64,000 bases of DNA from Saprospiraceae bacterium (GCA_043772905.1 JAYVFS010000301.1:2522-66521), one strand, 5' to 3'. Counted from the stretch's first letter, positions 2,038 through 63,905 are shown. Program-made: numbers and translations. The notes: generated from the sequence alone by a model not told the origin.

Positions 2038-2121
2038 GTTTTTTATAACTTTTTGTAACAAAAAGTGTTTAGAACCAAGTGTCTAAACACTTTTTTTTTC
2101 TTCAATACTGAGGGGGGTGCT

Positions 2122-2129
2122 TACCTTTG
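2122..2129 (+). promoter_or_regulatory. Bacteroidota-type -7 promoter box TACCTTTG (TAnnTTTG)
   Basis: Exact TAnnTTTG match 18 nt upstream of the ABC transporter ATG at 2147. Confidence 0.4.
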
Positions 2130-2146
2130 CAAAAAAATATTAAAAT

Positions 2147-3916
2147 ATGAGCCAGACTCAACCAAAAAAGAAATTCAACTTTCCGCTGTTTCGCCGCATT
2201 ATGTCTTTGGCAAATCCTTATCGGTTAATCTTTGCGTCCGCTGCGTTTTTAGCTATTGTCCTTGCACCGCTTTCGAGCGCACGTCCTTATTTGATACAAC
2301 AAATGGTGGATGAGCATATCTTTAAATTTGATGTGGCGGGCATGACGCGTATGGTCATTATCCTCATTGTGTTACTGTTTTTAGAAGTTATTTTGCAATA
2401 CACCTTTAATTATATTACCTCTTGGCTCGGGCAATCGGTCATTCGAGATTTACGTGTTCGGGTATTTCGTCGTGTTACGAGCTTCAATTTGTCGTATTTT
2501 GATAAAACCCCAATTGGGCAATCCACGACGCGGACGATTAGCGATATTGAGACCATCAATGCCGTGTTTTCGGAAGGTATCATGACGATTATTGCCGATT
2601 TATTGACGTTAATTGTCGTATTAGGCATTATGTTTTGGACAAGTTGGAAACTAACATTGGTGTGTATGACCGTTTTGCCCATACTTATTTTAGGCGCGCG
2701 TTGGTTCAAAAACGAAGTCGCTCGTTGGTTTCAAACGGTTCGGAACAGTATTTCAACCATGAATTCCTTTTTGCAGGAGCATATCAGCGGTATGAAAGTT
2801 GTTCAAATTTTCAATGCGGAAGCTCAGGAACGTGAGAAATTCAAGGAAATAAACCGTGCTTACACGGGTGCAAACCTAAAAGCCATATTTGCTTATGCTG
2901 TGTTTTTTCCTTTCGTTGAAATCATTTCTGCTGCGGCTTTGGGGCTTATGGTTTGGTATGGTTCGCGTGGTGTTATTGAAAACCACATTACTTTGGGCGT
3001 TTTGGTTGTTTTTCCTGTTTATTTGAATATGTTGTTTCGCCCAGTTCGGATGTTAGCTGATAAATTCAATACTTTACAAATGGGCATGGTTGCTGCCGAA
3101 AGAGTCTTTGATTTGCTTGATGAGGCTGAATTTATTGAAAAAAATGGCTCAAAAAAGGCAGATATACTGAGGGGGGATGTGGCGTTCAAAAATGTTGATT
3201 TTAGTTATGATAATGCCAATTACGTCTTGAAAAATGTCAGTTTTGAATTGAAAAGAGGTCAAACTTTAGCTATTGTTGGTTCAACAGGTTCTGGGAAAAC
3301 GACCATAACAAGCGTTTTATCTCGTTTTTATGAAATACAAAAAGGCTCGATTACGATTGATGGCGTGGATATTCGAGAGTATGATTTGAAGAGTTTACGC
3401 AGCAAAGTCGCTGTTGTTTTACAAGATGTATTCCTGTTCAGTGGTTCAGTTTTTGAAAACATTACTTTGAGAGACCCCTCAGTATCCTTAGAAAAGGTAA
3501 AGGCTTGCGCCGAAATGATAGGGGCTGCGGAGTTTATAGAACGATTGCCAGGCGGCTACGATTATGAAGTGATGGAACGTGGTGCGACTTTGTCAATGGG
3601 GCAAAGGCAGTTGATTTCGTTTGTTCGCGCTCTTGTATTTGACCCCAGCATCTTGATTTTAGATGAAGCAACCAGTTCTATTGACCCTGAAACTGAGGGG
3701 GTGATTCAATATGCGATTGAAAAATTGATTGACAAACGCACGTCTATTATCATTGCGCATCGCCTTTCGACCATTCGTCATGCCGATAATGTTTTAGTGA
3801 TGGATAAAGGAAAGGCGATTGAATTTGGTAAGCATGATGACTTGATACAAATCGAGGGCGGTCGTTATAGAGAGTTGTACGAAATGCAATTTGCTTCAAA
3901 TGTTATGAGCATGTAA
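2147..3916 (+). CDS. ABC transporter, fused permease/ATP-binding protein (MsbA/MdlB-like exporter)
   Basis: 589 aa. N-terminal six-helix ABC membrane domain, then Walker A GSTGSGKTT, signature LSMGQRQ and Walker B ILILDEATS. Confidence 0.9.
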   Translation: MSQTQPKKKFNFPLFRRIMSLANPYRLIFASAAFLAIVLAPLSSARPYLIQQMVDEHIFKFDVAGMTRMVIILIVLLFLEVILQYTFNYITSWLGQSVIRDLRVRVFRRVTSFNLSYFDKTPIGQSTTRTISDIETINAVFSEGIMTIIADLLTLIVVLGIMFWTSWKLTLVCMTVLPILILGARWFKNEVARWFQTVRNSISTMNSFLQEHISGMKVVQIFNAEAQEREKFKEINRAYTGANLKAIFAYAVFFPFVEIISAAALGLMVWYGSRGVIENHITLGVLVVFPVYLNMLFRPVRMLADKFNTLQMGMVAAERVFDLLDEAEFIEKNGSKKADILRGDVAFKNVDFSYDNANYVLKNVSFELKRGQTLAIVGSTGSGKTTITSVLSRFYEIQKGSITIDGVDIREYDLKSLRSKVAVVLQDVFLFSGSVFENITLRDPSVSLEKVKACAEMIGAAEFIERLPGGYDYEVMERGATLSMGQRQLISFVRALVFDPSILILDEATSSIDPETEGVIQYAIEKLIDKRTSIIIAHRLSTIRHADNVLVMDKGKAIEFGKHDDLIQIEGGRYRELYEMQFASNVMSM

Positions 3917-4115: not shown

Positions 4116-5933
4116 CTAATCGAAATAGAACTCTAATTCAACGCGACGGTCTTGTTGAAGTACGCCTGCATCATTCTTATTTGGATTAGATTGAGTCGCT
4201 CCAAAAAACTCTACAATGAGCAGGTTTGGTGAAATACCTCTTGAAACCAAGTAGTTTTTAACGGCATTAGAACGATTGCGCGACAACATTAAGTTGTGCT
4301 CTTGATCACCGCGTGCATCCGCATGACCGCTAATTTTCAATTTCCAATCCTTTTTCTTTTTCATGATTGAAATAACATTATTCAAATCACGATAAGATGA
4401 CGGACGGATAATCCATTTGTCTGTATCAAAATAAAGATTGCGAATGGCAATAGTCAAAGCATCTTGTTCATCTTGACTGACAACCGGGCAACCATTATTT
4501 TCTTTTGGACCATAAGTATTCGGGCATTTATCTAACTCATCTGGAATGCCATCTTTATCGCGGTCACCACCAAACGGACAACCTTTGTTCTCTTTTGGAC
4601 CCGGTGTATCGGGGCAAGCATCGTCCTTATCCATTGTGCCATCTTTATCGCGGTCACTTGTCAATGGACAACCCATGTTTGTCAATGGACCAGCTTCGTC
4701 TGGACAAGGGTCAATTTCATCCAAAATGCCATCTTTGTCGCGATCACTGAGGGGGCACCCTTCGTTGCGGGCTGACCCTGGAATGTCTGGACATTTGTCA
4801 ATATCGTCGCGAATGCCGTCACCATCACGGTCATTGAAGGGGCAGCCTTGATTTGGTTTAGTACCTGGAACGTCAGGACATTTGTCATCTGCATCGCAAA
4901 TACCATCCTTATCTCTGTCGGGACATAACTCTTTTTTCTCTTCTTTTTCAGGACAACCGTTGTTTTCCTTAGTACCCGGCTCTTTTGGACATTTATCGTC
5001 TTTGTCGCAGATGCCGTCTTTGTCTTCATCTTTGCATTGACCACCAAAACGGAAACCAACGGTCACTTCATGGCTGCCAGAACTGACGTTGCTCAACTGC
5101 GAAGTCGTCATATCGTAACTGTATGCCGCATACCATTTTGGATATTCAATACCCGCCATAGCGACAACAGCATCTTCAGTCCGATAGCTACCGCCCACCC
5201 AAAATTGGTTGTTAAATATACCTCGAATCGAAAAATCAGCTTGTGGCTTGTTATTTTGGGCGTATTTGCCCATTATCGAAGGTTCGAACTTCAATACATC
5301 GTTTACTTTTATCGTATAACCCATCATACCATAGTAGTGTCTAACAATTGTTGTCGGGTTTGCAAGCCTCAAAGAAGGGTCATAAATCAACTTTTTTTGA
5401 TACAATTGCGGTACTGAAATACCTGCAAAAAAACCATCTTGTTGACGGAAATAAAGACCAACGCTCAAGTCTGGAACCCACATACCTGCTTGTCCCGCAA
5501 GTATTGTAGGGTCTTGGTCAACAGCAATTTGAGAGAAAACGTTGTCCAATACACTCACCTTGTAATAGCCTCCTGAAACGCCTAAGCTCAAATTGGATTT
5601 TGTGCCTATCTTTTGGGTATAAGAAACGATTCCAGAAGCCCCCGTTTTCTTCAATTTACCCGCAACGTCGTTGTAGAAATTGCCGCCTACATTGAAACCC
5701 GACTTGCCCATGCGTCCATTGACCATGACAATTTGGGTTTGCGGTTGACCTGACAGACCCACCCATTGTGTCCGATATGTAGCCCGCAAATCAATATGTT
5801 CATTTTGACCAATGACTGCTGGATTATAACCGTAGGCATTGACAACATAGTTTGAAAAAAGCGGATATTGTTGTGCCATCCCTTGCCCAACTAAGGTGGT
5901 GATGACTATGAATATGTTTAAAATTTTTTTCAT
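4116..5933 (-). CDS. PorP/SprF-family T9SS membrane protein fused to thrombospondin type-3 repeats and an OmpA-like C-terminal domain
   Basis: 605 aa. The N-terminus QQYPLFSNYVVNAYGYNPAVIG is the PorP/SprF signature. The middle has about 9 copies of DxDxDGxxDxxDxCP (TSP3-type calcium-binding repeats). The C-terminus GHADARGDQEHNLMLSRNRSNAV ... RRVELEF is OmpA_C. Confidence 0.85.
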   Translation of the reverse strand: MKKILNIFIVITTLVGQGMAQQYPLFSNYVVNAYGYNPAVIGQNEHIDLRATYRTQWVGLSGQPQTQIVMVNGRMGKSGFNVGGNFYNDVAGKLKKTGASGIVSYTQKIGTKSNLSLGVSGGYYKVSVLDNVFSQIAVDQDPTILAGQAGMWVPDLSVGLYFRQQDGFFAGISVPQLYQKKLIYDPSLRLANPTTIVRHYYGMMGYTIKVNDVLKFEPSIMGKYAQNNKPQADFSIRGIFNNQFWVGGSYRTEDAVVAMAGIEYPKWYAAYSYDMTTSQLSNVSSGSHEVTVGFRFGGQCKDEDKDGICDKDDKCPKEPGTKENNGCPEKEEKKELCPDRDKDGICDADDKCPDVPGTKPNQGCPFNDRDGDGIRDDIDKCPDIPGSARNEGCPLSDRDKDGILDEIDPCPDEAGPLTNMGCPLTSDRDKDGTMDKDDACPDTPGPKENKGCPFGGDRDKDGIPDELDKCPNTYGPKENNGCPVVSQDEQDALTIAIRNLYFDTDKWIIRPSSYRDLNNVISIMKKKKDWKLKISGHADARGDQEHNLMLSRNRSNAVKNYLVSRGISPNLLIVEFFGATQSNPNKNDAGVLQQDRRVELEFYFD

Positions 5934-6061
5934 TTCATTGTTTTATTTTGCAAATGTGTATTTGCTTTTAATGAAAAATGTTGATGGTTATTTGGGAATT
6001 AGTTATTGGTTTATTAGTTAATCAATAACCAATTCTCCAATAACCAATTTCCCAATACCTA

Positions 6062-7315
6062 TTAACGTAGTATGGTGACCGAGCCTTCCCAAACAGTATT
6101 CTTATCATCGTTTAGTTTAATGATATAGAAATACGCTGCGGCGGGTAGTTCTTTGCCCTCTTGATTTGTACCTTCCCAATCGTTTGTATAGGCTTTTTTA
6201 GTATAAACTATTTGCCCCCAACGGTTGTAAATGAATATCTCATTATTAGGATATTTTTCAATGTTTGCAATGACCCATTTATCGTTGTTGTTATCACCAT
6301 TTGGTGTGATGACATCAAAAACTTTGAAGGTCGAGGTATTAATACGACACCGACGATTGACAATAAATGAGGTATCTAATCGGCAATTATTAGAATCGAG
6401 TATGGCAACGCGATATTGTCCTGCAATTAATGTGGAGATTGTCGAAGTTGTTTCGCCATTTGACCAATTGAGTCTGTAAGGTTTTGTACCTCCGCTGACA
6501 GTTAGCTGCAAAGCACCATCTTCATAATCTTTACAAGTTTCGGGTGTCATGACATTGGTAAATGAAATCGAACTGCTGGGTTGGTTGACCACAGTATCCA
6601 AGGTGAAAGTACAACCACTTGCATCGGTTGTCGTCACTCGGTAGCGACCTGCTGTTACATTCGAAAGGTTTTGAGTGGTTGCACCATTTGACCAGAGATA
6701 GGTTTTTGCTCCAGTGCCACCAATGGACGTTATCGTAATTCCGCCTGTACTTGCATTGCGACATTTGATAGTCGTCACTTGAGCTGTTGCCGAAAAACCA
6801 ATTTGACTAGCGGCGACATTGACGGTTTTAGCACGACTATCTGCGCATTGTCCGCTAATAACCTTCAAAGTGACGATTTTTAACCCACTTGATGTGTAAA
6901 TAACACCCGTTGGATTCAACTCGTTAGATGTTTGAGGCACAGCGCCTTCGCCAAAATTCCATTCTACCACCAAGTTAGGTGTCTGTCCCCCTGTGTATTC
7001 GAGGTCGAATTTAGTACCGCAAGTAGGTGACTGAAATGGTATAATATTGAAAGCTGGTGTCAAAGGTGGACAGCCTGGTGCATTGCCATTAAACGGCGGT
7101 TGTTGAAAACCTTGACGCAAATAACCTGCTGTGGTCGGGCTTGACGGATGTAAAACATTGCAGCCTGGACAGCTTCCTGCCGTCCAACTGACTCTAAATG
7201 GCGCAAAAGTTTTTAATGAGCCAATGCTTGTTAAAGTTGAGCGTTTGATTTGCTGGGCTTTAACGGCATGTATGCCAAAAGTCAGTATTAATAAAATTGT
7301 TATTATTTTTTTCAT
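6062..7315 (-). CDS. Secreted protein with a T9SS type-B (gliding-motility-associated, CHU_C) C-terminal sorting domain
   Basis: 417 aa with a signal peptide. Internal repeats of the CxxxxTGxIT/WSNGxTT type (SprB/HYR-like). C-terminus ITPNGDNNNDKWVI ... IYNRWGQIVY ... is the type-B CTD. Confidence 0.8.
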   Translation of the reverse strand: MKKIITILLILTFGIHAVKAQQIKRSTLTSIGSLKTFAPFRVSWTAGSCPGCNVLHPSSPTTAGYLRQGFQQPPFNGNAPGCPPLTPAFNIIPFQSPTCGTKFDLEYTGGQTPNLVVEWNFGEGAVPQTSNELNPTGVIYTSSGLKIVTLKVISGQCADSRAKTVNVAASQIGFSATAQVTTIKCRNASTGGITITSIGGTGAKTYLWSNGATTQNLSNVTAGRYRVTTTDASGCTFTLDTVVNQPSSSISFTNVMTPETCKDYEDGALQLTVSGGTKPYRLNWSNGETTSTISTLIAGQYRVAILDSNNCRLDTSFIVNRRCRINTSTFKVFDVITPNGDNNNDKWVIANIEKYPNNEIFIYNRWGQIVYTKKAYTNDWEGTNQEGKELPAAAYFYIIKLNDDKNTVWEGSVTILR

Positions 7316-7449
7316 TGCTCAAAAATTGATTTCAAACTGTTGTTTTTCAAAATATACCCCCCTCAGTATAAAGGGCGTTTTTTCCTAAAAATGTTCAGTT
7401 TTTGACTTAAAAAATGAATTTTCAGAAGATTAAGTATAAGAAATCAATC

Positions 7450-9009
7450 TTATTTTTGGAGCAAATATCCTGTAACATAGAAACTACCGACATTGGTTAA
7501 TCCTTTGCGTATTTTTTTACCTTCTGGAATAACGACAACACGTGGTGATGAACTCGAACCTGTAAAGAAGCTGTAATTCGTTCCATCAATCAAAAAAGAC
7601 ATATCACGCGAACCATTCGTTCCACTTTTTATGATGAGAGATTTACCTGTTGGAACAGTATATTCGGATGATGCATCCGAGAAGTCAAGCATAAGCGGTT
7701 CTGCATATTTTTGATTGTCAATCAAGAGACCACTACAAAAACAACTTTGAATCGTCTTGCCAGTCGGAATAATGGGCATTCCCGGCTCAATAAGGATGTT
7801 TTTTCCATCTGACATCACAATTGGATTGTTGACGGCTGTGATAAAGAGGGTTCTTCCGAAAGGTACTGTAAAATTAGATGTTATTAAAACGGCTTCACCT
7901 TGAACCCCATATGGAAATTCAATGGTTGCACCCGGTGCTCTTAAAGGAGTTGTCGAAAAATTAACTTGATCAAACTGTCCATTGTTTTTTGATAATTTCA
8001 ATGTACTGGTAAGTGTATCATAAGTCATCGTCTGAATCTCATTTGTAGGGTCTTTATCACGATCATCCAAGGCTGTTTGTGCTGTAACCGCCGTTTGCGC
8101 ACTCACTGCCGTTTGTGCTGAAACAGCTGTTTGCGCACTAACTGCCGTTTGGGCACTGATAGCTGTGTTTGCTCTGCGCGAGCTATCTGCTAACCAAGCA
8201 AATTGCGCGGTATCTGAACGACGTGCCGTAATCGCACTGATAGCCGTTTGCGCTGAAATAGCTGTTTGCGCACTGATAGCTGTGTTTGCTCTACGTGAAC
8301 TGTCTGCCAACCAAGCGAAAGTCGCTGTATCAGAACGGCGTGCTGTATTTGCTGTAATAGCCGTTTGTGCAGTAACTGCATTTTGTGCATTGACTGCTGT
8401 TTGAGCCGTGATAGCAGAATTAGCCGTAATGGCTGTTTGTGCACTAATAGCAGTGTTTGCTCTACGTGAACTGTCCGATAACCAAGCAAATGCGGCTGTA
8501 TCTGAACGACGAGCCGTTAAAGCGACATTAGCCGTGAGTGCATTATTGGCGGTTAAAGCGGTCACTGCAATACGTGCAGAATCAGCATAAGCAGCAGAGC
8601 TGGACTTGTCGGCATAAAGGGCATAAGGGACAGAAACCATTTGGTTTGTACCCATTAAGACGTAATTGTTGCCGCCTGTAATGTCCATTTCTATTTTAAG
8701 ATAATACTTGTCTGCGCCCCATTTGATGTTATTAAATGTGGTTTGCGCACCACTCACACGGGAGCCTGAGCCAATTTGTAGGTCGAACAAACCAAAGCCA
8801 TCGGTCAGAAGGGAATGAACTTCAACCCATTCTTCAGAGCCAGCGGTTGACCCCTTCAAAATGGATAGTCTAACTTTAATGGATTGGCTAACTAATTCGT
8901 TACCACGCGTATCCGTAGCAACTGCTTGATAGCAAATGGCTTGTGGCACTTGAGCTGAAAGCGTTAAAGTTGTTGTGAAAAACAAGAGTAAAGTGATAAA
9001 TTTTTTCAT
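7450..9009 (-). CDS. Secreted repeat-rich fibre-like protein (function unknown)
   Basis: 519 aa with a signal peptide ending LSAQ. It has an N-terminal globular part, a central low-complexity block of T-A-[IV]-[ST]-A-[QN] hexapeptides punctuated three times by ARRSDTAxFAWLxDSSRRAN, and a C-terminal globular part. Confidence 0.6.
   Translation of the reverse strand: MKKFITLLLFFTTTLTLSAQVPQAICYQAVATDTRGNELVSQSIKVRLSILKGSTAGSEEWVEVHSLLTDGFGLFDLQIGSGSRVSGAQTTFNNIKWGADKYYLKIEMDITGGNNYVLMGTNQMVSVPYALYADKSSSAAYADSARIAVTALTANNALTANVALTARRSDTAAFAWLSDSSRRANTAISAQTAITANSAITAQTAVNAQNAVTAQTAITANTARRSDTATFAWLADSSRRANTAISAQTAISAQTAISAITARRSDTAQFAWLADSSRRANTAISAQTAVSAQTAVSAQTAVSAQTAVTAQTALDDRDKDPTNEIQTMTYDTLTSTLKLSKNNGQFDQVNFSTTPLRAPGATIEFPYGVQGEAVLITSNFTVPFGRTLFITAVNNPIVMSDGKNILIEPGMPIIPTGKTIQSCFCSGLLIDNQKYAEPLMLDFSDASSEYTVPTGKSLIIKSGTNGSRDMSFLIDGTNYSFFTGSSSSPRVVVIPEGKKIRKGLTNVGSFYVTGYLLQK
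8040..8590 (-). repeat. In-gene tandem repeats (18-bp hexapeptide units nested in three longer repeats)
   Basis: Runs of GCTGTTTGCGCACTNAYNGCC-like 18-mers are visible, plus three diverged copies of the segment encoding RRSDTAxFAWLxDSSRRANTAISAQTA. Confidence 0.8.
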
Positions 9010-9345
9010 TAGAAGAATTCTTTTAATTAATAATATTTTTGCACTGTGAACTATAAACTGAATAAAACTTTGATGACATTCAAATACGCTAACCTTTATT
9101 GGTTAGTTACATAAGCCAATAAAAAAACATGCAAATACGTTACTTTTTTTTAAACATTTCGTTCAATGAAAAGGTAATTTGTTGATTGTCAACAGTTTGC
9201 AAGCAGTGTAAATGATTATTGTTTTAAAGCGTAGTATTGTTGGCTTGTAATAGTTTCGGTAAGAAAATTCTTTAAATCGTGTTTGTAGGGGCAAAGATGT
9301 GTATTACTATAAATATAACAAAATTTTATCTTTAAAAATTTATAA

Positions 9346-9379
9346 TAAAAAAAACGTCAGTGTGAAAACACACTGACGT
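9346..9379 (-). terminator. Intrinsic terminator (minus strand)
   Basis: Perfect 11-bp stem ACGTCAGTGTG/CACACTGACGT with loop AAAA. The plus-strand A8 run at 9346-9353 gives a T-tract on the minus strand. Confidence 0.7.
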
Positions 9380-9479
9380 TTCAACGAAAGGACACAATTT
9401 TTTGCTAAAAATTATCTTCAAATTTAATGCTTTTATTGCACAAAGTCAATAGGTCATCAAAAATTATCTATGAATTAAC

Positions 9480-9918
9480 ACGATTAGGGTAGTGGCATCG
9501 GCTTTTGTTATCAAAGCTTGACGGTCGCAATCACCCCCACCATAACTATAATGTAAAGAACGCGTCTACCCATCAACTGTAATACTGCGTTTTCCGGGGA
9601 CTATCCAAGGACAGATTGTTTTGTGAACGATGGGCAACTCAATAACGCTGCTATAAGATTTATCTTTTCGATTAACACCTGAACAATTGCCCGAAACAGA
9701 CCATATATCATCTAACTGTGTGCGTGTCAAATAACCTTGTGTGCGTGTAACGATATGCGTTGCAGTCCAAGTTGTTGTCTCTCTATTCCCAAAGGTGATT
9801 TTCGTATCTGTTGCAGTGCGTGTATAAGTTGGTTGACTGCTGCTGAGTCCTGTGTTTTTCCAAGTTCGTGTACCTTCAATTTTGGTACTGTAAAGTCACT
9901 ATTATACATTACGGACAC
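9480..9918 (-). pseudogene. Possible remnant of a degraded gene
   Basis: A minus-strand frame of about 115 codons has no usable start (..TRTWKNTGLSSSQPTYTRTATDTKITFGNRETTTWTATHIV..SITVDG). It continues after an in-frame TAG (TRSLHYSYGGGDCDRQALITKADATTLI). The ORF-track ORF 9727..9918 is in a different frame of the same stretch. Confidence 0.25.
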
Positions 9919-10005
9919 AGTTGCATTAAGTTTCGAAAGTGTGTCACTAAAATTAATAATTATTTTTTTTTAACAAACCATAGTTTCTATAACGTCAGAA
10001 CTCAA

Positions 10006-10013
10006 TAACTTTG
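10006..10013 (+). promoter_or_regulatory. -7 promoter box TAACTTTG
   Basis: TAnnTTTG match ending 5 nt before the pyrR ATG (10019). Confidence 0.4.
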
Positions 10014-10018
10014 CCCCA

Positions 10019-10570
10019 ATGGAAAATACGCGCATCATATCTGAAGGTACTCAATTCGACTTAACAATCGAACGGCTTTGTTATCAACTTATTGAAGATT
10101 ACGATGATTTTCAAAATACCTGTATCATTGGCATACAAACAGGCGGTGTTCAGTTGGCAGAACGTTTGATTGAAAAATTAGACGATATACTGAGGGGTAC
10201 TGATATTCCTTTTGGCAAACTCGATATTACTTTTTACAGGGACGATTTTAGGACTTCTTTCAAACCGCTTGCAGCAAACGTCAATGATATGCCCTTCATT
10301 ATTGCCAATAAAAAGGTTATTTTGGTTGATGATGTCTCATACACAGGGCGTTCCGTGCAAGCCGCTTTGTCTGCCTTAAATCATTATGGTCGCCCAGAAT
10401 CCATTAAATTACTCGTCTTGGTTGACCGTCATTTCAACAGGCAATTGCCGATTCAACCCGATTATATAGGTATAAGCATTGATGCCTTAGACGAAGCCTA
10501 TGTCAGAGTTGATTGGGCAACAGAAGAAGAGGCAGATAAAATCTTACTTTTTCCTCAAAAACAAAATTAA
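10019..10570 (+). CDS. pyrR: Bifunctional pyrimidine operon regulator / uracil phosphoribosyltransferase
   Basis: 183 aa. Collinear PyrR features: GIQTGGV, DITFYRDD, and the PRPP loop VILVDDVSYTGRS. Confidence 0.9.
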   Translation: MENTRIISEGTQFDLTIERLCYQLIEDYDDFQNTCIIGIQTGGVQLAERLIEKLDDILRGTDIPFGKLDITFYRDDFRTSFKPLAANVNDMPFIIANKKVILVDDVSYTGRSVQAALSALNHYGRPESIKLLVLVDRHFNRQLPIQPDYIGISIDALDEAYVRVDWATEEEADKILLFPQKQN

Positions 10571-52739: not shown

Positions 52740-52976
52740 GATTTTTTTTTAATGATGAATTATGAATGATAAATGATGAATTTTACAGGAATTGAACTAA
52801 AACATTGATTATCAATTTGTTCAATAGTTAAATTCATTAATTGATGTCTCAAAAGTAAGCTAAGTTATTGAATCATAACTATTTTTTGAGACACGAATTT
52901 CACAAATGACACGAATTATAATAAAATTGATTCGTGTCATTTGTGAAATTGGTGTCCACCAACTTTTTACAAAATT

Positions 52977-53004
52977 CACCATTCACCATTCACCATTCAC
53001 CATT
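52977..53004. repeat. Tandem heptamer CACCATT x4
   Basis: Four perfect copies directly upstream of the hisH promoter box. Confidence 0.9.
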
Positions 53005-53012
53005 ACATTACC

Positions 53013-53020
53013 TACTTTTG
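53013..53020 (+). promoter_or_regulatory. -7 promoter box TACTTTTG
   Basis: TAnnTTTG match ending 4 nt before the hisH ATG (53025). Confidence 0.35.
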
Positions 53021-53024
53021 CCGC

Positions 53025-54702: not shown

Positions 54703-54804
54703 GACGTTTGGTCGGTAAAAATACTGAGGGGGTCGAAAATAGCGACATTTACGGACTAAAAGGCGTGTAAACTTGTTCTTTATTCTTTTACAAAAACAAA
54801 AAAA

Positions 54805-56284: not shown

Positions 56285-58660
56285 TCACTTGATGAGTGTA
56301 AAATCGCCTTTAATAATCTCTTTTCGCCCATCAATATAAGTCACCTCAGCCCAAAAGACATAAACACCTGTCATCGCTTCTTGACCCTGAAAATAACCGT
56401 CCCAACCTTCCGTTTCAGCTGCAGGAAAAATATGGTCTTTTTGAAACATAAGATGCCCACCACGACCAAAAACCTTAAAGTTCTTTATACTTACGACCGT
56501 TTTTCCACCATATAAGGTGTAATAATCGTTTATCAAATCACCATTTGGCGAAAAGGCTTGTGGCGCAAAAAAGAGGTTGTCGCGTCGTATAATCACTTGT
56601 GTAGCTGCCATTTTGATACAACCCAATGAATCTATAGCCGTAATACTGTACGTATTGGAGTCAAAAGGTTTCACAAAAGTATCGAGCGAACGAATGGAAC
56701 GGTCGCTCCAATAGAAACTACTGAGGGGTCTGTCAGTCGTAACCGTTAGGCGAAATGAATCACCAAATTGCACTTCTTTACTTTCTGGTAATTGCAAAAC
56801 GAAGGGTGTTGGGTTAGGAATATCAATCTTTTTATCAATTTTACAACCCATTCTATCCACTAAGGAAATGGTGTAACTGCCTGATTTCAAGTTTTCGATG
56901 AAAATACGGCGTGGAAATGTGTCATGCCCATTCACTAAAAAATAAGGGGGCGAACCGCCTCTGGCACTGTCGAGAGCAATAACAGCATCGTTTCCATCGT
57001 GGCAGCGCGGCGGTTTTACGGAATATTCAGCAACTTCTGGCGAAGGAATAATCTTTAAAAGAATATCATCTTTAACTGTACAGGCTGTTGTAGCAGTCAC
57101 TTTGACAAAAATTTTGACGGTTTGCTTAGGATTAACAGTAATTATAGGCGTTGTTTCGCCTGTACTCCAACTATATAAGCAGTTGCGGCAATCGGGAATT
57201 GTGGCATCGAGCGTCACAGGATAACTCACACAAACTTGTGTACTGTCTCCCAGATTCAATTCAAAAATACACTTGATTTTAGCGACCCACATATCATTTG
57301 TATTGAGTTTGCCGCCATCTGGGAAAACGAGTCTGCCTCGGGCATTTTCTGTTTTGTCGCTGCCAGCGTCTGAATTGGACAAACCACAAACCAAATAGGC
57401 ACCATCTTCAAACTTGACCATTTCAAAAGCAGCGTCATTGCCCGGTCCGCCAAAATTTTGATCCCAAATAATATCCCCTTTTTCGTCAATATAGACCAAC
57501 CAGAAATCGTAATTACCTCTGAGTGTATCTTGTTTTGTACCGCCAGGCAAGGATATAGATTGTCCTGCCAGCATAATATAGCCCGTTTTGTTCTGTTCAA
57601 TGGCGACTACACGGTCGTTGCTGGTACCGCCATACGTTTTGTCCCAAATCTTTTTGCCGTTTTTATCAATTTTAATTATCCAAAAATCGGCTTCGCCATA
57701 ATTCGGAGCGGTTTTGTCAAAATCAGGGTCGCCGCTACTGTTTGCACCAATGATAAAAGTGCCATCTTTAAGTTCTTGAATATCTCTGATTTCATCCAAT
57801 TTAGAACTGCCATAGGTTTTATCCCATATTTTCTGCCCATTGCTATCAAATTTGATAACCCAAATATCTTTGTTATTGCCTTTTACACCGCGTAAATCCT
57901 CTGATTTGTCACCCGATCGGCTTGAAATAGATTCACAAGCCAATATGAAATTACCGTCTTGTGTGGTACTCAAAGCATAAGGATACTCGTCACGGTCGTC
58001 GCCGCCAAAGGATTTATCCCAAATTTTATTGCCATTTTTATCTATTTTGAGTAGCCAAATATCATTTGCGCCTTGGCTTGGCATTGTTTTGTCGCCACTG
58101 ACAGGTGAGTCAGAATGCCCAACAATGATATAACTGTTTCCATTATCAGTGACAATGGCATTAAAAGGTTGGTCGTCGCCGCTGCCACCATAGGTTTTTT
58201 CCCATCGTTTCGTTCCATCTGGCGCAATTTGCACGAGCCAAAAATCGAAACCACCTTTGTTGGCATCTGTTTTGTCGCCCGTTTTTCCAGAAAGGCTTGC
58301 ACCGATTAAAAGATACCCCTCAGTATTTTGAATCGCTTTGTAACAACGGTCAGTCGTATCGCCACCGTAGCGTTTGTCCCACAATTTTATTCCTGTGCTA
58401 TCAATTCGGACAATCCAATAATCTTCTGCGCCCCGTGCGGCTTGTGTCACATCGCGTCCGTCGGCGGGTGAGTCGGTTGAACCGATGAGTAAAAAACCAC
58501 CATCCTCAGTTTTGAAAGCAGATTGAAGGGTTTCCCAACCTGTGGCTCCATAAGTTTTGTCCCATTGCACACTCGGTTGAGCTATAATGGAGACTGATGC
58601 CATTGTTAAAAAAGCAAGTATAAATGGAAGTGATATATTTTTAATGCTTGGAATGTTCAT
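56285..58660 (-). CDS. Large secreted protein with repeated WDKxYGG beta-propeller-like modules and a T9SS type-B C-terminal sorting domain
   Basis: 791 aa with a signal peptide. About 8 repeats of the K.WDKTYGG..D form. C-terminus FSPNGDLINDYY ... VFGRGGHLMF ... GVYVFWAEV is CHU_C type. Confidence 0.8.
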   Translation of the reverse strand: MNIPSIKNISLPFILAFLTMASVSIIAQPSVQWDKTYGATGWETLQSAFKTEDGGFLLIGSTDSPADGRDVTQAARGAEDYWIVRIDSTGIKLWDKRYGGDTTDRCYKAIQNTEGYLLIGASLSGKTGDKTDANKGGFDFWLVQIAPDGTKRWEKTYGGSGDDQPFNAIVTDNGNSYIIVGHSDSPVSGDKTMPSQGANDIWLLKIDKNGNKIWDKSFGGDDRDEYPYALSTTQDGNFILACESISSRSGDKSEDLRGVKGNNKDIWVIKFDSNGQKIWDKTYGSSKLDEIRDIQELKDGTFIIGANSSGDPDFDKTAPNYGEADFWIIKIDKNGKKIWDKTYGGTSNDRVVAIEQNKTGYIMLAGQSISLPGGTKQDTLRGNYDFWLVYIDEKGDIIWDQNFGGPGNDAAFEMVKFEDGAYLVCGLSNSDAGSDKTENARGRLVFPDGGKLNTNDMWVAKIKCIFELNLGDSTQVCVSYPVTLDATIPDCRNCLYSWSTGETTPIITVNPKQTVKIFVKVTATTACTVKDDILLKIIPSPEVAEYSVKPPRCHDGNDAVIALDSARGGSPPYFLVNGHDTFPRRIFIENLKSGSYTISLVDRMGCKIDKKIDIPNPTPFVLQLPESKEVQFGDSFRLTVTTDRPLSSFYWSDRSIRSLDTFVKPFDSNTYSITAIDSLGCIKMAATQVIIRRDNLFFAPQAFSPNGDLINDYYTLYGGKTVVSIKNFKVFGRGGHLMFQKDHIFPAAETEGWDGYFQGQEAMTGVYVFWAEVTYIDGRKEIIKGDFTLIK

Positions 58661-58843: not shown

Positions 58844-59395
58844 ATGATAATGATTGAAAATCAATTAGTTACTGTACACGATAAAACTTTTAGACCCATG
58901 ATTTCTGCAGATGCCATTGCAGTTAGGGTAGCCGCTATCGGCAAACAGATTACGGAGGATTATTGTGGCAAAAAACCACTTTTGTTATCTATTTTAAATG
59001 GTGCATTCATGTTCGCTGCGGATTTGGCTCGCGTTATTGATACAGACTTAGAATTGACATTTGTCAAGCTCTCTTCTTACAAAGGTACTTCAACTACGGG
59101 TAAAGTCACTACAGTTTTAGGTCTTGACACCGATTTGCGTGGACGACACATCATTATTGTAGAAGACATCGTTGACACAGGCAATACGTTACACAATTTT
59201 TTTGAAGAACTCTACAAAGAAGAGCCTGCGTCTGTCGAAATCGCTGCTTGTTTTCACAAACCAGAGGCTTTACAGCACCCCCTCAGTATCAAGTACTTAG
59301 GTTTCGAGATTCCGAATCATTTTATCATTGGTTATGGATTGGATTTCGATGGCTTGGGGCGCAATTTGCCTGATGTGTATGAATTGAATGAGTGA
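58844..59395 (+). CDS. hpt: Hypoxanthine phosphoribosyltransferase
   Basis: 183 aa. PRPP loop IIIVEDIVDTGNTL and C-terminal IGYGLDFDGLGRNLP. Confidence 0.9.
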   Translation: MIMIENQLVTVHDKTFRPMISADAIAVRVAAIGKQITEDYCGKKPLLLSILNGAFMFAADLARVIDTDLELTFVKLSSYKGTSTTGKVTTVLGLDTDLRGRHIIIVEDIVDTGNTLHNFFEELYKEEPASVEIAACFHKPEALQHPLSIKYLGFEIPNHFIIGYGLDFDGLGRNLPDVYELNE

Positions 59396-59407: not shown

Positions 59408-59502
59408 GATAGGACAGATTAGACTGATTTACGCAGATTTTCCTTTGTTCCTTACAGAATAACAAAGGAAAATCTGCGTAAATCAGTCTAATCTGTCCTA
59501 TC
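59408..59502. repeat. Perfect about 42-bp-arm inverted repeat of the GACCACAGAT..CTGAT family
   Basis: GATAGGACAGATTAGACTGATTTACGCAGATTTTCCTTTGTT pairs with 59461-59502. The distal arm supplies the last codons and the stop of the GNAT ORF. Confidence 0.85.
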
Positions 59503-59961
59503 TTCCTTTATCGCCAATTGTTTTTCAAAACAGACACTATTTTCGATGCCTTCATATTGACCATAATTAGGTATGATACCGTATCCATTCTTTTTATAAA
59601 GTTCTATCGCCTCGGGCTGTTTTTTGCCTGTTTCTAAAACGCAGCGTGTATAGGACATTTCCTTTGCCCAAACCTCCAATTCCGTTAAAACGATTGTTGC
59701 CAAACCTTTTCCTCTGTGTTGTAGTAAAGTGTACATGCGTTTGACTTCCATTGCTTTTGGTTCAAATTCTTTTATAGCGCCACAACTGACTGCTACCCCC
59801 TCAGAATATGCGACAACAGCATGTTTGATATGTGTTATTTTATTGAATTGGTCATAAAAAGCATGCTCATCGCCGTCTCTTTTAGCTAAGTCAGCGTCAA
59901 GAAGTTTGACTAATTCAATAAAATCTGGATTATCAGAGTTGGTTCTTATTAGTTTTATCAT
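59488..59961 (-). CDS. GNAT family N-acetyltransferase
   Basis: Start set at MIKLIRTNSDNPDF. Acetyl-CoA motif LLQHRGKGLATIVL. Confidence 0.8.
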   Translation of the reverse strand: MIKLIRTNSDNPDFIELVKLLDADLAKRDGDEHAFYDQFNKITHIKHAVVAYSEGVAVSCGAIKEFEPKAMEVKRMYTLLQHRGKGLATIVLTELEVWAKEMSYTRCVLETGKKQPEAIELYKKNGYGIIPNYGQYEGIENSVCFEKQLAIKEDRTD

Positions 59962-60889: not shown

Positions 60890-61276
60890 TTAGTTGTTTT
60901 TACCTGGATTCGCAGCTTTCTGCGCTTCCTTTCGTTGTTTTTTAACTTCATTCCATTTAGCAAACTGATCTGCACTCAAAAGCGCTTTCATATCCGTGTC
61001 ATTTGATGCTTGCAGTTCCGTCATTTTTTCTTTTTTAGCTTTTTTGTCCATAGACTCATCCGCTTTGAGGGCATCACTTTTCTCTTTGTAAGCTTTGCCG
61101 ATTTCTTTCATTTTTGTGTCTTGTTCTTTGGTTAAGTCCAAAACAGTTTTCCAACTTTCTGGTTTTTGACCTGCCATAGCTTCTGGTTTTGCCATTTTTT
61201 CAGCAGTATTAGTTTGCGCAAAAGAGTTTACTGCGAATGCAGTCAAAACAGCGAATAAAACGATTACTTTTTTCAT
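60890..61276 (-). CDS. Small Lys-rich periplasmic protein, tandem paralogue
   Basis: Start set at MKKVIVLFAVLTAFAVNSFAQ, then LDLTKEQ and LSADQFAKW. The promoter-proximal and terminator sequences are also duplicated. Confidence 0.5.
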   Translation of the reverse strand: MKKVIVLFAVLTAFAVNSFAQTNTAEKMAKPEAMAGQKPESWKTVLDLTKEQDTKMKEIGKAYKEKSDALKADESMDKKAKKEKMTELQASNDTDMKALLSADQFAKWNEVKKQRKEAQKAANPGKNN

Positions 61277-61490
61277 CAACAACATTGTTTTTTAATTGAA
61301 ATAAATATTTTTTACCTTCAGATTCTGTCCTCAAATTTAGGGAACGGGTTTAAGACGACAATAATACAATGAAGTTTAATGTCATCAGCATTTTTAAGAA
61401 AATGTTAACGAAATGCTCATACTACCCCCTCAGTATTTTTCTTTTTTGTCAATAAAAAATCCGAAACTTGTGCCTTATTTAAAGTCATTT

Positions 61491-63905
61491 ATGTTACAAA
61501 AACTGCGCAATCTCTCTATTTTCTTTTTAGAAAAACACCGCCGCAAAACGCAAATAGGCTTTTGTGTCCTCTTCATTGCCTTTTGGTTCTGTCTGCCAAA
61601 ACCGTTATTCGACGACCCAACGAGCATGGTTTTGGAAGCAAACGACGGGGCTTTACTCAATGCCCGCATTGCAGCCGATGGGCAATGGCGTTTTCCGCCA
61701 AGCGATACCTTACCTGAAAAATTTATCACCTGTTTATTGGAATTTGAAGACCGCCAATTTTATTATCACCCAGGAGTTAATCTTTTTTCACTGGTTCGTG
61801 CCATTGGACAAAATATTAGAAATCAAGAAGTTGTGAGTGGCGGTTCTACCATAACCATGCAAACGATACGTATGTCTCGAAAAAGTCAACCCCGAAACAT
61901 ATTAACGAAACTCATCGAAGCAACTATGGCAATGCGCCTCGAAGTGACTTACAAAAAGAACGATATTTTGTTGTTATATGCCTCCAATGCCCCTTTTGGT
62001 GGCAATGTCGTCGGTCTTGAAGCTGCTTCATGGCGTTATTTTGGCAAAAGCCCGAAACAATTGACTTGGGCAGAATCTGCGATGCTCGCCGTTTTGCCCA
62101 ATGCGCCTTCGCTCATTCACATTACTCGTAATCGGCAAGCCCTTTTCAACAAAAGAAATCGCCTTTTAGAACGCTTGATACTGAGGGGTAAAATTGATCG
62201 CGCTTCAGGCGAATTAGCGAAAGAAGAACCTTTGCCCGACCAGCCTTTGTCGTTGCCGCAATCCGCGCCTCATTTGCTGGATAGGGTTTTCAAAGAGCAA
62301 ATTTTTAGGACAGGTAAACGCTCTCGTGTTCGAACAACCATAGATGAAAACTTACAAAAACAAGTCAATAATATCCTTACAATACATCACAATACCTTGA
62401 TTTCCAATGGTATTCACAACGCAGCTGTTTTTGTGACAGATATTGAAACAGGCAATGTGTTGGCATATTGCGGCAATATTATAGGGGCAGGAAAGGCGCA
62501 CGGTGAAGACGTGGATGTGATTCCATCGATGCGTTCAACAGGCAGTATTTTGAAGCCATTTTTATATGCTTATGCTCAACAAGAAGGTGAAATTTTGCCC
62601 AATTCATTGCTCGTTGATATTCCAACAGAAATTGGCGGTTATCATCCTGAAAATTATGCGGAAACGTATGACGGAGTGATTCCCGCAAGACGTGCCTTAG
62701 CTCGTTCACTCAACATTCCGTTTGTCCGTTTGTTGAGTCAATATGGCATAGAGAAATTTTATCATCATTTGAAGAAATTGGGCATCACATCTTTTACGAA
62801 TTCGCCCGACCATTATGGTTTAACTATGATTTTAGGCGGTGGCGAAGGCTCTCTTTGGGAGATTACAAACGCTTATGCTTCCATGGCTCGAACGGCTAAA
62901 CATTGGTACAGTTTGCAAAACAAATATGCCGTAGATGATTGGCATTCAGCGAATTATGTTTATAAAAAAAACAAAGACAAGCCACTTTTTTCGTTCAAAT
63001 CTTCGACACAAGAGACCCCATCAGTATTGTCAGCTTCTGCTTCGTGGTTGGTGTTAGATGCCATGAAAGAAGTGGAGCGTCCCGATGGTGAAGGCAATTG
63101 GGAGTTGTTTAATTCTTCAAAAACCATTGCTTGGAAAACAGGGACAAGTTTCGGTTTTCGTGATGCGTGGGCTGTCGGTTTGACCCCTCAGTATGCCGTC
63201 GGTGTTTGGGTCGGTAATGCCGATGGTGAAGGTCGTCCAGGTTTAATTGGGGTTGAAAAAGCGGCACCGATTCTCTTTGATGTTTTCAATGCATTGCCAA
63301 CTAAAAACGAATGGTTTGAACAACCTTATGATGATATGATGAAAATCGAAGTTTGTCGCCAAAGTGGTTACCGAGCGACTGATTTATGCGAAAAAGATAC
63401 TGTTTGGGCATCAAAAACAGGGATTAAAGTCAAATCATGCCTTTTTCATCAATTGGTACATTTGGATAAAACGGAAAAGTTTCAAGTCACGGGCGAGTGC
63501 GAAGAACCGCAAAATATGGTGCATCGTCCGTGGTTTTTGTTGCCTCCTTTACAGGAATTTTACTTCAAACCCCGACATCCGAACTATCAACCACCCCCTC
63601 AGTATAGAGCCGATTGTCGCACCGTTGAAAGTAAAGTAAACCCGATGCAGTTGATTTATCCAAAATCTATAACAAAAATTTATGTACCCATAGATTTTGA
63701 TGGCAAACCCAGCGCAACCATTTTCCGAGTAGCACACAGAGAAGCCAATGCTCAAATTTATTGGCATTTGGACAATGCGTTTGTTTCAGCAACAAAAACG
63801 TTTCATCAAATCGCTCTACAACCTACAATCGGCAAACATCGTTTAACGTTAGTAGATGCCAATGGCAATCGTTTAGAACAAGTTTTTGAAATAATGGCAA
63901 AATAA
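61491..63905 (+). CDS. pbpC: Penicillin-binding protein 1C (bifunctional transglycosylase/transpeptidase)
   Basis: Start set at MLQKLRNLS. GT51 motifs EDRQFYYHPGVN and GGSTITMQ, transpeptidase STGSILKP (SxxK), and a C-terminal PbpC_C-like domain. Confidence 0.9.
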   Translation: MLQKLRNLSIFFLEKHRRKTQIGFCVLFIAFWFCLPKPLFDDPTSMVLEANDGALLNARIAADGQWRFPPSDTLPEKFITCLLEFEDRQFYYHPGVNLFSLVRAIGQNIRNQEVVSGGSTITMQTIRMSRKSQPRNILTKLIEATMAMRLEVTYKKNDILLLYASNAPFGGNVVGLEAASWRYFGKSPKQLTWAESAMLAVLPNAPSLIHITRNRQALFNKRNRLLERLILRGKIDRASGELAKEEPLPDQPLSLPQSAPHLLDRVFKEQIFRTGKRSRVRTTIDENLQKQVNNILTIHHNTLISNGIHNAAVFVTDIETGNVLAYCGNIIGAGKAHGEDVDVIPSMRSTGSILKPFLYAYAQQEGEILPNSLLVDIPTEIGGYHPENYAETYDGVIPARRALARSLNIPFVRLLSQYGIEKFYHHLKKLGITSFTNSPDHYGLTMILGGGEGSLWEITNAYASMARTAKHWYSLQNKYAVDDWHSANYVYKKNKDKPLFSFKSSTQETPSVLSASASWLVLDAMKEVERPDGEGNWELFNSSKTIAWKTGTSFGFRDAWAVGLTPQYAVGVWVGNADGEGRPGLIGVEKAAPILFDVFNALPTKNEWFEQPYDDMMKIEVCRQSGYRATDLCEKDTVWASKTGIKVKSCLFHQLVHLDKTEKFQVTGECEEPQNMVHRPWFLLPPLQEFYFKPRHPNYQPPPQYRADCRTVESKVNPMQLIYPKSITKIYVPIDFDGKPSATIFRVAHREANAQIYWHLDNAFVSATKTFHQIALQPTIGKHRLTLVDANGNRLEQVFEIMAK

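Follow-up and report, generated by a model that had tools for sequence, protein, structure and literature searches.

A hyper-abundant, uptake-sequence-like word dispersed through the DNA of one Saprospiraceae clade

The DNA studied here is a stretch of 64,000 nucleotides from Saprospiraceae bacterium (GCA_043772905.1, JAYVFS010000301.1:2522-66521); "the window" refers to this whole 64-kb stretch. It carries ordinary housekeeping and cell-surface genes of Bacteroidota, such as an msbA-like exporter gene, tilS, sbcCD, trmD, gcvP, and the genes for PBP1a and an alpha-2-macroglobulin. A member of the Queuosine_synth family, members of the histidine-biosynthesis family (glutamine amidotransferase, His_biosynth), PorP/SprF, and cargo proteins of the type IX secretion system (T9SS) are encoded as well. 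Dispersed in and between these genes is a short word, (A/T)TACTGAGGGG(G/T), 10-12 bases long. Its 8-mer core, CTGAGGGG/CCCCTCAG, was found 57 times in 64 kb, 28 times on the plus strand and 29 times on the minus strand, and the full 10-mer TACTGAGGGG 51 times; the remaining six core copies deviate in the leading TA alone (AACTG in three, CACTG in one, TTCTG in two). The copies are listed below, those on the minus strand from the first C of the C-run.

2106-2117, plus strand: TACTGAGGGGGG copy, intergenic, 30 bp ahead of the msbA-like gene; G-run of 6, but of 5 in strains L001, L003, L004 and L005
3165-3176, plus strand: TACTGAGGGGGG copy in the msbA-like ABC exporter gene (2147-3916, plus), sense, read as LRG
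3475-3484, minus strand: TACTGAGGGG copy in the msbA-like gene, antisense, read as PSV
3691-3701, plus strand: AACTGAGGGGG variant in the msbA-like gene, sense, read as TEG
4745-4755, plus strand: CACTGAGGGGG variant in a PorP/SprF-OmpA gene (4116-5933, minus), antisense, within the strain mosaic tract 4419-5778
7357-7368, minus strand: TACTGAGGGGGG copy, intergenic
10188-10197, plus strand: TACTGAGGGG copy in a phosphoribosyltransferase gene (10019-10570, plus), sense
11439-11450, plus strand: TACTGAGGGGGG copy in the GTP cyclohydrolase I gene (11237-11854, plus), sense
12014-12024, plus strand: TACTGAGGGGG copy in the SUI1 gene (11946-12287, plus), sense
12248-12257, plus strand: AACTGAGGGG variant in the SUI1 gene, sense
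13214-13223, minus strand: TACTGAGGGG copy in tilS (12447-13790, plus), antisense
13739-13748, plus strand: TACTGAGGGG copy in tilS, sense
15342-15351, minus strand: TACTGAGGGG copy, intergenic
16153-16162, minus strand: TACTGAGGGG copy in a DAHP-synthase-family gene (15437-16252, plus), antisense
17026-17036, minus strand: TACTGAGGGGG copy in a DUF218 gene (16378-17148, minus), sense
18338-18347, plus strand: TACTGAGGGG copy in an alpha/beta hydrolase gene (17855-18811, minus), antisense
20025-20034, minus strand: TACTGAGGGG copy, intergenic, in the FKBP/trmD spacer
20827-20836, minus strand: TACTGAGGGG copy, intergenic
22100-22109, minus strand: TACTGAGGGG copy in sbcC (21622-24702, minus), sense
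22537-22547, minus strand: TACTGAGGGGG copy in sbcC, sense
22785-22795, minus strand: TACTGAGGGGG copy in sbcC, sense
23705-23714, plus strand: TACTGAGGGG copy in sbcC, antisense
25358-25368, minus strand: TACTGAGGGGG copy in sbcD (24699-25943, minus), sense
26614-26624, minus strand: TACTGAGGGGG copy, intergenic
27925-27935, plus strand: TACTGAGGGGG copy in a TPM-domain gene (27828-28670, plus), sense
29073-29083, minus strand: TACTGAGGGGG copy in gcvP (28802-31693, plus), antisense, over a conserved TPSV; common to 5/5 clade species via synonymous codons
29387-29396, minus strand: TTCTGAGGGG variant in gcvP, antisense; 8-mer core here in 4/5 clade species, full TACTGAGGGG in the other three
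30009-30018, plus strand: TACTGAGGGG copy in gcvP, sense, in a variable segment; common only to the window and the sister species L313
31123-31133, plus strand: TACTGAGGGGG copy in gcvP, sense (GTEG); patchy in the clade (window, L007, L317)
32836-32845, minus strand: TACTGAGGGG copy in an NTP-transferase gene (32186-33106, plus), antisense
33222-33233, minus strand: TACTGAGGGGGG copy, intergenic, ending at the start codon of 33233-34063
35326-35336, plus strand: TACTGAGGGGG copy in a DUF1508-OmpA gene (34195-36573, minus), antisense
37342-37352, plus strand: TACTGAGGGGG copy, intergenic
38644-38655, minus strand: TACTGAGGGGGG copy, intergenic
38892-38901, minus strand: TACTGAGGGG copy in an amino-acid permease gene (38862-40511, plus), antisense
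39271-39282, plus strand: TACTGAGGGGGG copy in the amino-acid permease gene, sense
40812-40822, minus strand: TACTGAGGGGG copy in a hypothetical 236-aa gene (40681-41390, minus), sense
41795-41804, plus strand: TACTGAGGGG copy in a glycosyltransferase gene (41388-42542, minus), antisense
43050-43059, plus strand: TACTGAGGGG copy in a PhzF-family gene (42686-43489, plus), sense
43419-43430, plus strand: TACTGAGGGGGG copy in the PhzF-family gene, sense
45651-45661, plus strand: TACTGAGGGGG copy, intergenic
46660-46670, minus strand: TACTGAGGGGG copy in the alpha-2-macroglobulin gene (45863-51514, plus), antisense
47684-47693, minus strand: TACTGAGGGG copy in the alpha-2-macroglobulin gene, antisense
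48754-48764, minus strand: TACTGAGGGGG copy in the alpha-2-macroglobulin gene, antisense
50440-50451, plus strand: TACTGAGGGGGG copy in the alpha-2-macroglobulin gene, sense
51027-51036, plus strand: TACTGAGGGG copy in the alpha-2-macroglobulin gene, sense
53399-53410, plus strand: AACTGAGGGGGG variant in a glutamine amidotransferase gene (53025-53624, plus), sense
54722-54732, plus strand: TACTGAGGGGG copy, intergenic; decayed by one substitution to TACTGAGGAGG in one strain, L190
55746-55756, plus strand: TACTGAGGGGG copy in a GSP-synthase-like gene (54805-55935, plus), sense
56719-56728, plus strand: TACTGAGGGG copy in a T9SS-cargo gene (56285-58660, minus), antisense
58316-58325, minus strand: TACTGAGGGG copy in the T9SS-cargo gene, sense
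59278-59288, minus strand: TACTGAGGGGG copy in a phosphoribosyltransferase gene (58844-59395, plus), antisense
59796-59806, minus strand: TTCTGAGGGGG variant in an acetyltransferase gene (59488-59961, minus), sense
61425-61435, minus strand: TACTGAGGGGG copy in the PBP1a gene (61413-63905, plus), antisense
62179-62188, plus strand: TACTGAGGGG copy in the PBP1a gene, sense
63184-63193, minus strand: TACTGAGGGG copy in the PBP1a gene, antisense
63594-63604, minus strand: TACTGAGGGGG copy in the PBP1a gene, antisense

When aligned, the 57 copies share A (37 copies) or T (15), then TACTGAGGGG, then G (33) or T (23). The G-run is 4 long in 24 copies, 5 in 23 and 6 in 10, and is followed by T in 46 of the 57. 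Past about 12-13 nt the flanks show no similarity to one another; only a weak downstream preference for T, at 5-7 nt, was seen, and AT-rich, helically phased flanks were not detected. The word is the most frequent of all 8-mers, 10-mers and 12-mers of the window. The G+C content of the window is 38.9%. The number of copies expected under Markov models of orders 0-3 is 0.42-0.65 for the 8-mer and 0.02-0.06 for the 10-mer, while orders 4-5 suffer contamination from the word itself. In dinucleotide-preserving shuffles the 8-mer CTGAGGGG, observed 57 times, averaged 0.46 copies and never exceeded 3; the 10-mer averaged 0.03 and never exceeded 1. The excess in the window is thus about 100-fold (8-mer) to about 2,000-fold (10-mer). 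In 223 kb of pooled DNA from the clade described below, 169 perfect 10-mers were found against 0.06 expected under a masked order-3 model (about 2,800-fold), and variants one base off numbered 31 against 3.3 expected (about 9-fold), position 1 being the least constrained. Perfect copies therefore form a very sharp peak over one-off copies (169 versus 31 in clade DNA, 51 versus 13 in the window). To our knowledge, an excess on such a scale is found only for the DNA uptake sequences (DUS) of Neisseriaceae, the uptake signal sequences (USS) of Pasteurellaceae, and the highly iterated palindrome HIP1 of cyanobacteria. An assembly artefact is ruled out: the word recurs in assemblies made independently and drawn from four sources (ENA, Logan, JGI and metagenome-assembled genomes (MAGs) at NCBI), and it lies in frame inside conserved genes.

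These figures bear out an initial annotation made from the window alone. Its 57 core copies, 51 10-mers, 28/29 strand split and all coordinates were recovered on recount, the six TA variants were exactly as claimed, and its G-run lengths of 4, 5 or 6 with T next in 46 of 57 were confirmed. The A that it placed ahead of most copies is there in 37 (T in 15), and the flanks diverge where it said they would. It had estimated a G+C content of about 40%, slightly above the measured value, and an expectation below one 8-mer and of about 0.1 10-mer; the comparison with higher-order models that it proposed leaves the excess standing under orders 0-3 and under the masked model in 223 kb. A density of about 0.9 per kb and a non-palindromic word, both stated there, also hold.

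The placement of the copies follows DNA rather than genes. Coding sequence holds 46 of the 57 (81%), close to the coding fraction of 0.83 (binomial P = 0.60), and no intergenic enrichment was seen in the 64-kb window. The coding copies are read as LRG (14), TEG (12), PLS (9), PSV (7) and PQY (4), which are all five stop-free frames of the word; the sixth would give TGA. Because all five are used, the signal lies at the level of DNA, not of peptide or RNA. These copies comprise 26 in sense and 20 in antisense orientation. The plus and minus orientations are interleaved throughout the window, although 12 of 15 sliding windows show a positive GC skew, and a 75:25 skew of the Chi type is rejected (28 of 57 on the plus strand; P = 4e-5). 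Over these 64 kb, as distinct from a whole replichore, the word has no replichore or gene-strand polarity, as was found when orientation was compared in the way the initial annotation suggested; its statements that strand bias is absent and that copies sit inside ordinary housekeeping genes as well as spacers both stand. A link to the Bacteroidota -7 promoter element (TAnnTTTG right after the G-run) was considered and rejected, since it matched at only 2 of 11 intergenic copies, which is not significant.

The copies are also spaced more evenly than chance allows. Distances between neighbours average 1,098 bp with a coefficient of variation (CV) of 0.57, compared with 0.98 for random placement, and none of 20,000 random placements was as even (P < 5e-5). 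The gaps are bounded on both sides, the shortest being 218 bp and the longest 2,831 bp. In five further clade loci the CV is 0.49-0.86, i.e., also below 1. The longest motif gaps cover surface-protein genes and a XisH/XisI pair: the pair lies with a Dabb-domain gene (51637-52379) inside the long motif-free gap 51029-53401, and other long gaps span T9SS surface-protein genes (4747-10190). The DNA in such gaps may be younger or faster-evolving.

A GcvP-based survey of GTDB species genomes placed the host as an uncultured member of Saprospiraceae, in keeping with the assignment to Bacteroidota in the initial annotation; the window itself matched metagenome assemblies only. Among the 80 loci of this survey, the word occurred only in the nearest, L007, a Saprospiraceae MAG with a GcvP 84% identical to that of the window (24 copies in 22.6 kb). 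In a further eight loci under the label Saprospiraceae or Saprospira, whose GcvP is 64-70% identical, and in the remaining Bacteroidota loci, about 70, the 10-mer was missing and the 8-mer had 0-2 chance matches. A finer gradient of GcvP identity to the window was drawn from a protein collection:

L313: GcvP 84% identical, 16 8-mer copies in 18.1 kb
L314: GcvP 77% identical, 16 8-mer copies in 22.9 kb
L317: GcvP 76-77% identical, 12 8-mer copies in 18.2 kb
L316: GcvP 74% identical, no 8-mer copy in 17.0 kb
L315: GcvP 72-73% identical, no 8-mer copy in 17.1 kb

The boundary is sharp: the word is present at a GcvP identity of at least about 76%, gone at 72-74%, and essentially missing from the other Bacteroidota loci, about 78 in number. 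In the GcvP tree the carriers are monophyletic, as ((window, L313), L007) and (L314, L317), with L316 and L315 outside. The five carrier species (the window species, L007, L313, L314 and L317) have 0.66-1.06 copies per kb. Neither of the two nearest outgroups, L315 and L316, showed another dominant word or a dialect in the locus read. Sequence collections were scanned with single 14- and 15-mers; among the metagenome matches listed (at least 120), about 10-15 were motif-dense, giving about 70 kb of new clade DNA, none of which overlaps the window. Candidate word dialects elsewhere in Bacteroidota were rejected as local arrays rather than dispersed words. Such arrays lie in spacers with periods of roughly 7 or 14 nt, at L011 45-80 and 5255-5880, L062 799-860 and 9661-9710, L068 2328-2460, L043 14206-14290, L023 6974-7030, and L076 17473-19583; those of L011 and L076 are clustered but not strictly tandem. 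Two of the repeated units are AATCGTGAA, from Terrimonas ferruginea, and AACCCGTAA, from Pedobacter agri.

The gcvP gene allows the origin of individual copies to be followed. In codon alignments of the five carriers and two outgroups, copies match the motif-less sequence base for base with zero indels; the word thus arises through substitution, not insertion. At site 29073 all five carriers have ACC CCC TCA GTx, while the outgroups have ACT CCG TCG or ACG CCG TCC and encode the same TPS, followed by V or M. Since carriers and outgroups share the TPS residues with different codons, the synonymous positions are held in the motif state. The comparison of orthologues in relatives proposed in the initial annotation thus showed the word to be kept at synonymous sites. 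Turnover is also seen. Two gcvP sites are private to single species, and at the patchy site (31123) the window, L007 and L317 carry the word, while L313 and L314 are outgroup-like, with about five mismatches to it. Seen from the protein, copies occupy either conserved residues compatible with the word (TPSV, GxEG) or stretches of low conservation; the same kinds of position have been reported for USS and DUS copies (PMC2817400).

Among other strains of the window species, which are more than 99.2% identical, 5 substitutions fell in 1,020 positions inside the word and 347 in 132,801 outside, a comparison that is uninformative at such identity. These strains do record recombination. Over the 1,360 bp of 4419-5778, 87 substitutions (6.4%) separate L001 and L003 from the window, against a background divergence of 0.1% or less, and 81 of the 87 are at third codon positions. 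This mosaic tract lies in the PorP/SprF-OmpA gene (4116-5933, minus) and holds a copy of the word. L002 has a shorter mosaic, 5115-5778, and smaller clusters of single-nucleotide differences occur at 49306-49469, 54523-54553 and 55116-55221. The 1.36-kb mosaic and the shorter clusters between strains indicate that short-tract homologous recombination is active in the population.

Phage contigs in IMG/VR carry the word as well, two of them at host-like density. IMGVR_UViG_3300037882_004998 (L184+L186), with terminase, protease, endolysin and tail genes, has 19 copies in 22.8 kb (0.83 per kb), 13 of them antisense to its genes, which are all on the plus strand. IMGVR_UViG_3300048691_000223 (L318+L132) has 18 copies in the 24.1 kb read (0.75 per kb); it encodes a tyrosine integrase and a Cro/CI-type repressor beside terminase and virion genes, which marks it as temperate. 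Temperate phages of Pasteurellaceae gain USS up to host-like frequency, and large lytic phages are USS-poor (PMC6776037). The phage copies fit an uptake model, because temperate Pasteurellaceae phages accumulate USS in this way. Taking the phage copies as evidence against an uptake role was considered and rejected, given this precedent and the temperate contig found here. Further phage contigs with the word are L163, L183, L139, L130/L166/L106 and L117. In addition, L301 (1-11680) carries the word at a lower density, 4 copies in 11.7 kb (0.34 per kb). It has genes for a Cpn10-like protein and for a tail-tube protein resembling T4 gp19, and may represent either a contractile injection system or a lytic phage of the clade.

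Close inverted pairs of the word occur in spacers of the sister species L314 (5716-5750), L229 (62-95 and 2793-2826) and L276 (12015-12056 and 13544-13592), and are predicted to fold into hairpins at -24 to -29 kcal/mol. Four cases were folded, and in two of them (L314 and L276 12017/12046) the stem is followed by a T-run on the folded strand; the L314 pair lies 24 bp past the stop codon of a Tex-family gene. Judged from these features, the pairs are probably intrinsic terminators. DUS/USS pairs are concentrated in terminators, and about half of all copies lie in predicted ones (10.1101/2025.10.24.684340). A different arrangement was seen in L244 (385-664, metagenome contig Ga0114942_1084465), an intergenic tandem array of about four 67-bp units, each beginning AAATACTGAGGGG(G)TAGTTTTACC and each with one word; it looks like iterated binding sites or a recent duplication. 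An extra inverted word copy lies beyond a terminator-like hairpin near 905 of the same locus.

We consider that the word is more likely than not an uptake- or transformation-enhancing sequence that evolved independently in one Saprospiraceae clade and is kept by molecular drive, and put the probability of this reading at roughly 0.55. It would then be a functional counterpart of DUS and USS, and of HIP1 in the role now proposed for that word. This reading is ranked first because the excess, the sharp consensus, the strand symmetry, the origin by substitution, the synonymous maintenance with turnover, the spacing of about 1 kb, the clade restriction, the terminator-type pairs and the temperate-phage loading together make up the syndrome known from DUS and USS. 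That syndrome is explained by molecular drive, in which biased uptake is followed by recombination. In the Saprospiraceae clade, a surface or periplasmic component of the DNA-import machinery would bind word-bearing double-stranded DNA in either orientation, and fragments with at least one copy would be imported preferentially. The imported strand would then recombine into the chromosome, and word-bearing alleles would replace word-less ones more often than the reverse. Under such a drive, point substitutions would with time stock the genome with copies at every place where proteins tolerate them; the copies would come to lie about one recombination tract apart and persist at synonymous sites, and long-resident prophages would be loaded too. 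We infer three elements of this model: competence of the host, an uptake bias towards the word, and a receptor. The evidence for it consists of a genomic signature only. The DUS/USS-like signature proposed in the initial annotation is upheld, all of its tests that were run having come out in that direction; the over-regular spacing of about 1 kb, the sharp clade boundary, the hairpins of sister species and the accumulation in temperate phage are features beyond it.

Within Bacteroidota, Riemerella columbina is naturally competent and prefers its own DNA (PMC7965970). A gene for the transformation protein DprA (DNA_processg_A; L315 7976-9073, minus) adjoins gcvP in a motif-less Saprospiraceae outgroup, so the family encodes this protein.

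Several points weigh against an uptake role. No competence, pilus or candidate receptor genes were found in the window or the flanks read, and we know of no ComP-type receptor from Bacteroidota. The word shares only the trinucleotide CTG with DUS and USS, and the window, with its minimum spacing of 218 bp, has none of the terminator-type inverted pairs. The phage contig IMGVR_UViG_3300037882_004998, with its structural genes, showed no lysogeny genes in the 22.8 kb available, so that accumulation in a lytic phage is possible, and this would speak against drive through transformation. Every line of evidence is an analogy with DUS and USS. Most of these patterns, phage mimicry included, would also be expected if the word were maintained by another process acting on fragments, for instance as a self-tag recognised by a nuclease or by recombination machinery.

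Two alternatives offered in the initial annotation, a repair-driven word and the binding site of an abundant DNA-binding protein, are retained but weakened. The first survives best, although we regard it as unlikely. As HIP1 was classically viewed, the word would then have no part in uptake: a sequence-directed enzyme specific to the clade (a nuclease of the very-short-patch type working with a methyltransferase, say) would convert near-cognate sequences into it in any DNA that replicates in the cells. The substitution origin in all frames and the equal density in phage DNA are compatible with this, as are the 9-fold surplus of one-off variants and the lineage-specific distribution, whose sharp boundary looks as if one enzyme had been gained. 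The main argument against a purely local repair bias is the regular spacing: a local mutational bias does not predict that the short- and long-gap tails should both be missing. Moreover, recognition of 10-12 non-palindromic base pairs is beyond the known specificities of methyltransferases and Vsr-type enzymes. No such enzyme was seen in the roughly 64 kb of genome examined, and the 64-kb window contains no methyltransferase gene. HIP1 sites are themselves conserved by selection rather than replenished by repair (PMC5861425), and HIP1 has recently been tied to transformation efficiency and proposed as an uptake sequence.

Next comes the possibility that the word is an orientation-independent tag of "self", which also appears improbable. 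A clade-specific nuclease, recombination or defence machine would spare or repair word-bearing DNA and degrade word-less DNA, by a logic like that of Chi but with no polarity, and resident phages would mimic the tag. Regular spacing suits a benefit per segment with diminishing returns, and the host-like density in phage contigs and the clade-specific word agree with it; the sbcCD operon in the window carries 5 copies, a circumstantial point only. However, all known words of the type of Chi and KOPS (FtsK-orienting polar sequences) are polar, whereas the copies here divide 28/29 between the strands. Known Chi words are also 5-8 nt long with a few-fold excess, against 100- to 2,800-fold here, and the absence of polarity together with the size of the excess disfavours such words. 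In addition, selection at the level of the organism alone would hardly maintain thousands of sites, which is the classical argument for drive in the case of USS. If a self-tag were the true function, its density and specificity would be such as have never been described before.

That the copies are binding sites of an abundant, clade-specific protein that structures or segregates the nucleoid is more doubtful still. The regular spacing of about 1.1 kb and the sharp consensus of 10-12 bp could be expected of such sites, and the L244 array, with one copy per 67-bp unit, recalls iterated protein-binding sites. Yet no known nucleoid protein needs thousands of near-perfect 10-mers within coding sequence; parS, NBS (Noc-binding), SBS (SlmA-binding) and matS sites number in the tens. 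The phage accumulation and the terminator-type pairs would also be left without a reason. Finally, a remnant of a mobile repeat, such as a miniature inverted-repeat transposable element (MITE) or a repetitive extragenic palindrome (REP, or REPIN as a doublet) moved by a Y1 transposase, or else an assembly or sequencing artefact, can be dismissed: some inverted pairs resemble REPIN doublets and an IS200-type Y1 transposase adjoins gcvP in L317 (9189-9734), but the codon-level gcvP alignments exclude a mobile repeat, the flanks are unrelated past 12-13 nt, 81% of the copies lie in genes, in frame and in indel-free alignment to motif-less orthologues (as the initial annotation held, the word is not part of a longer repeat), a link to the transposase, of IS200/RAYT (REP-associated tyrosine transposase) type, was rejected as it sits in the largest motif-free gap of that locus (6614-10273) with no flanking word, and the word recurs in assemblies from four independent sources.

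In the literature searched, neither the word nor its complement was found as a bacterial motif, the matches being eukaryotic primers and constructs, and no uptake sequence was described for Bacteroidota or Saprospiraceae; the statement in the initial annotation that no equivalent was known in this phylum is consistent with this. A 2025 survey confined uptake sequences to two proteobacterial families, Neisseriaceae and Pasteurellaceae (10.1101/2025.10.24.684340). HIP1 of cyanobacteria has only lately been put forward as a third case. Only A-rich words emerged from a k-mer search of Riemerella anatipestifer, R. columbina and Flavobacterium johnsoniae, the last of which was not competent under the conditions tested (PMC7965970). 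If the uptake reading is true, the word would mean that preference for self-DNA arose independently in a phylum in which little is known of how DNA is imported, and would provide a defined 13-mer ligand for finding a Bacteroidota DNA receptor. It would be a third or fourth replicate for the theory of molecular drive (spacing versus tract length, proteome cost, phage loading). It could also serve as a natural barcode by which contigs, prophages and phages in metagenomes are recognised as belonging to this uncultured clade of Saprospiraceae; for the phages of the clade it could act as a host barcode. Should the word prove to have no role in uptake, a genome-wide signal of extraordinary strength is left to be explained.

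Among known systems, Chi and KOPS resemble the word as over-represented oligomers that are read by DNA-processing machines and that phages can mimic; those words are replication-skewed, short and enriched a few-fold, whereas the present word is non-polar and in vast excess. REP, REPIN and MITE elements likewise have many dispersed copies, and the inverted hairpin doublets in spacers of sister species recall them. However, these known elements are longer, strictly intergenic and spread by insertion, while the present word is mostly single, intragenic and made by substitution. HIP1 (GCGATCGC) is, like the word, a hyper-abundant short sequence in and between genes that is conserved between genomes beyond neutral expectation. 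It differs as an 8-bp palindrome with known orphan methyltransferases and a phylum-wide distribution, whereas the present word has 10-12 bp, is non-palindromic and belongs to a small clade.

The closest parallels are the uptake sequences. The USS of Pasteurellaceae (AAGTGCGGT / ACAAGCGGT) is similar in its average spacing of about 1 kb and fairly even distribution, in its accumulation by temperate phages up to host density, and in a perfect consensus far above one-off variants. USS copies are likewise mostly intragenic, in several frames and at tolerant protein positions, as has been reported (PMC2817400). The word differs in that it contains neither core, AAGTGCGGT or ACAAGCGGT with AT-rich flanks, its own flanks are essentially unconserved, and the host phylum is another. 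The DUS of Neisseriaceae (AT-GCCGTCTGAA and its dialects) is likewise a non-palindromic word of 10-12 nt at about 1 per kb on both strands, specific to a lineage, with spacing on the scale of recombination tracts, gain and loss between related species, and inverted pairs, which for the present word were seen as terminator-like hairpins in sister species. The distances between DUS agree with how long conversion fragments are, and USS have an average spacing of about 1,000 bp (PMC7811141, PMC2397512). Here too the host phylum differs, and the word contains neither GCCGTCTGAA nor a dialect of it, CTG alone being common. In the window it is 81% intragenic with no terminator pairs, whereas about half of DUS/USS lie in predicted terminators. 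DUS has the minor pilin ComP as its receptor, and the word in Saprospiraceae is known here from sequence alone. In sum, because the sequence comparison found neither the DUS nor the USS core, the word lies outside the DUS and USS sequence families, yet by analogy it appears to behave like them.

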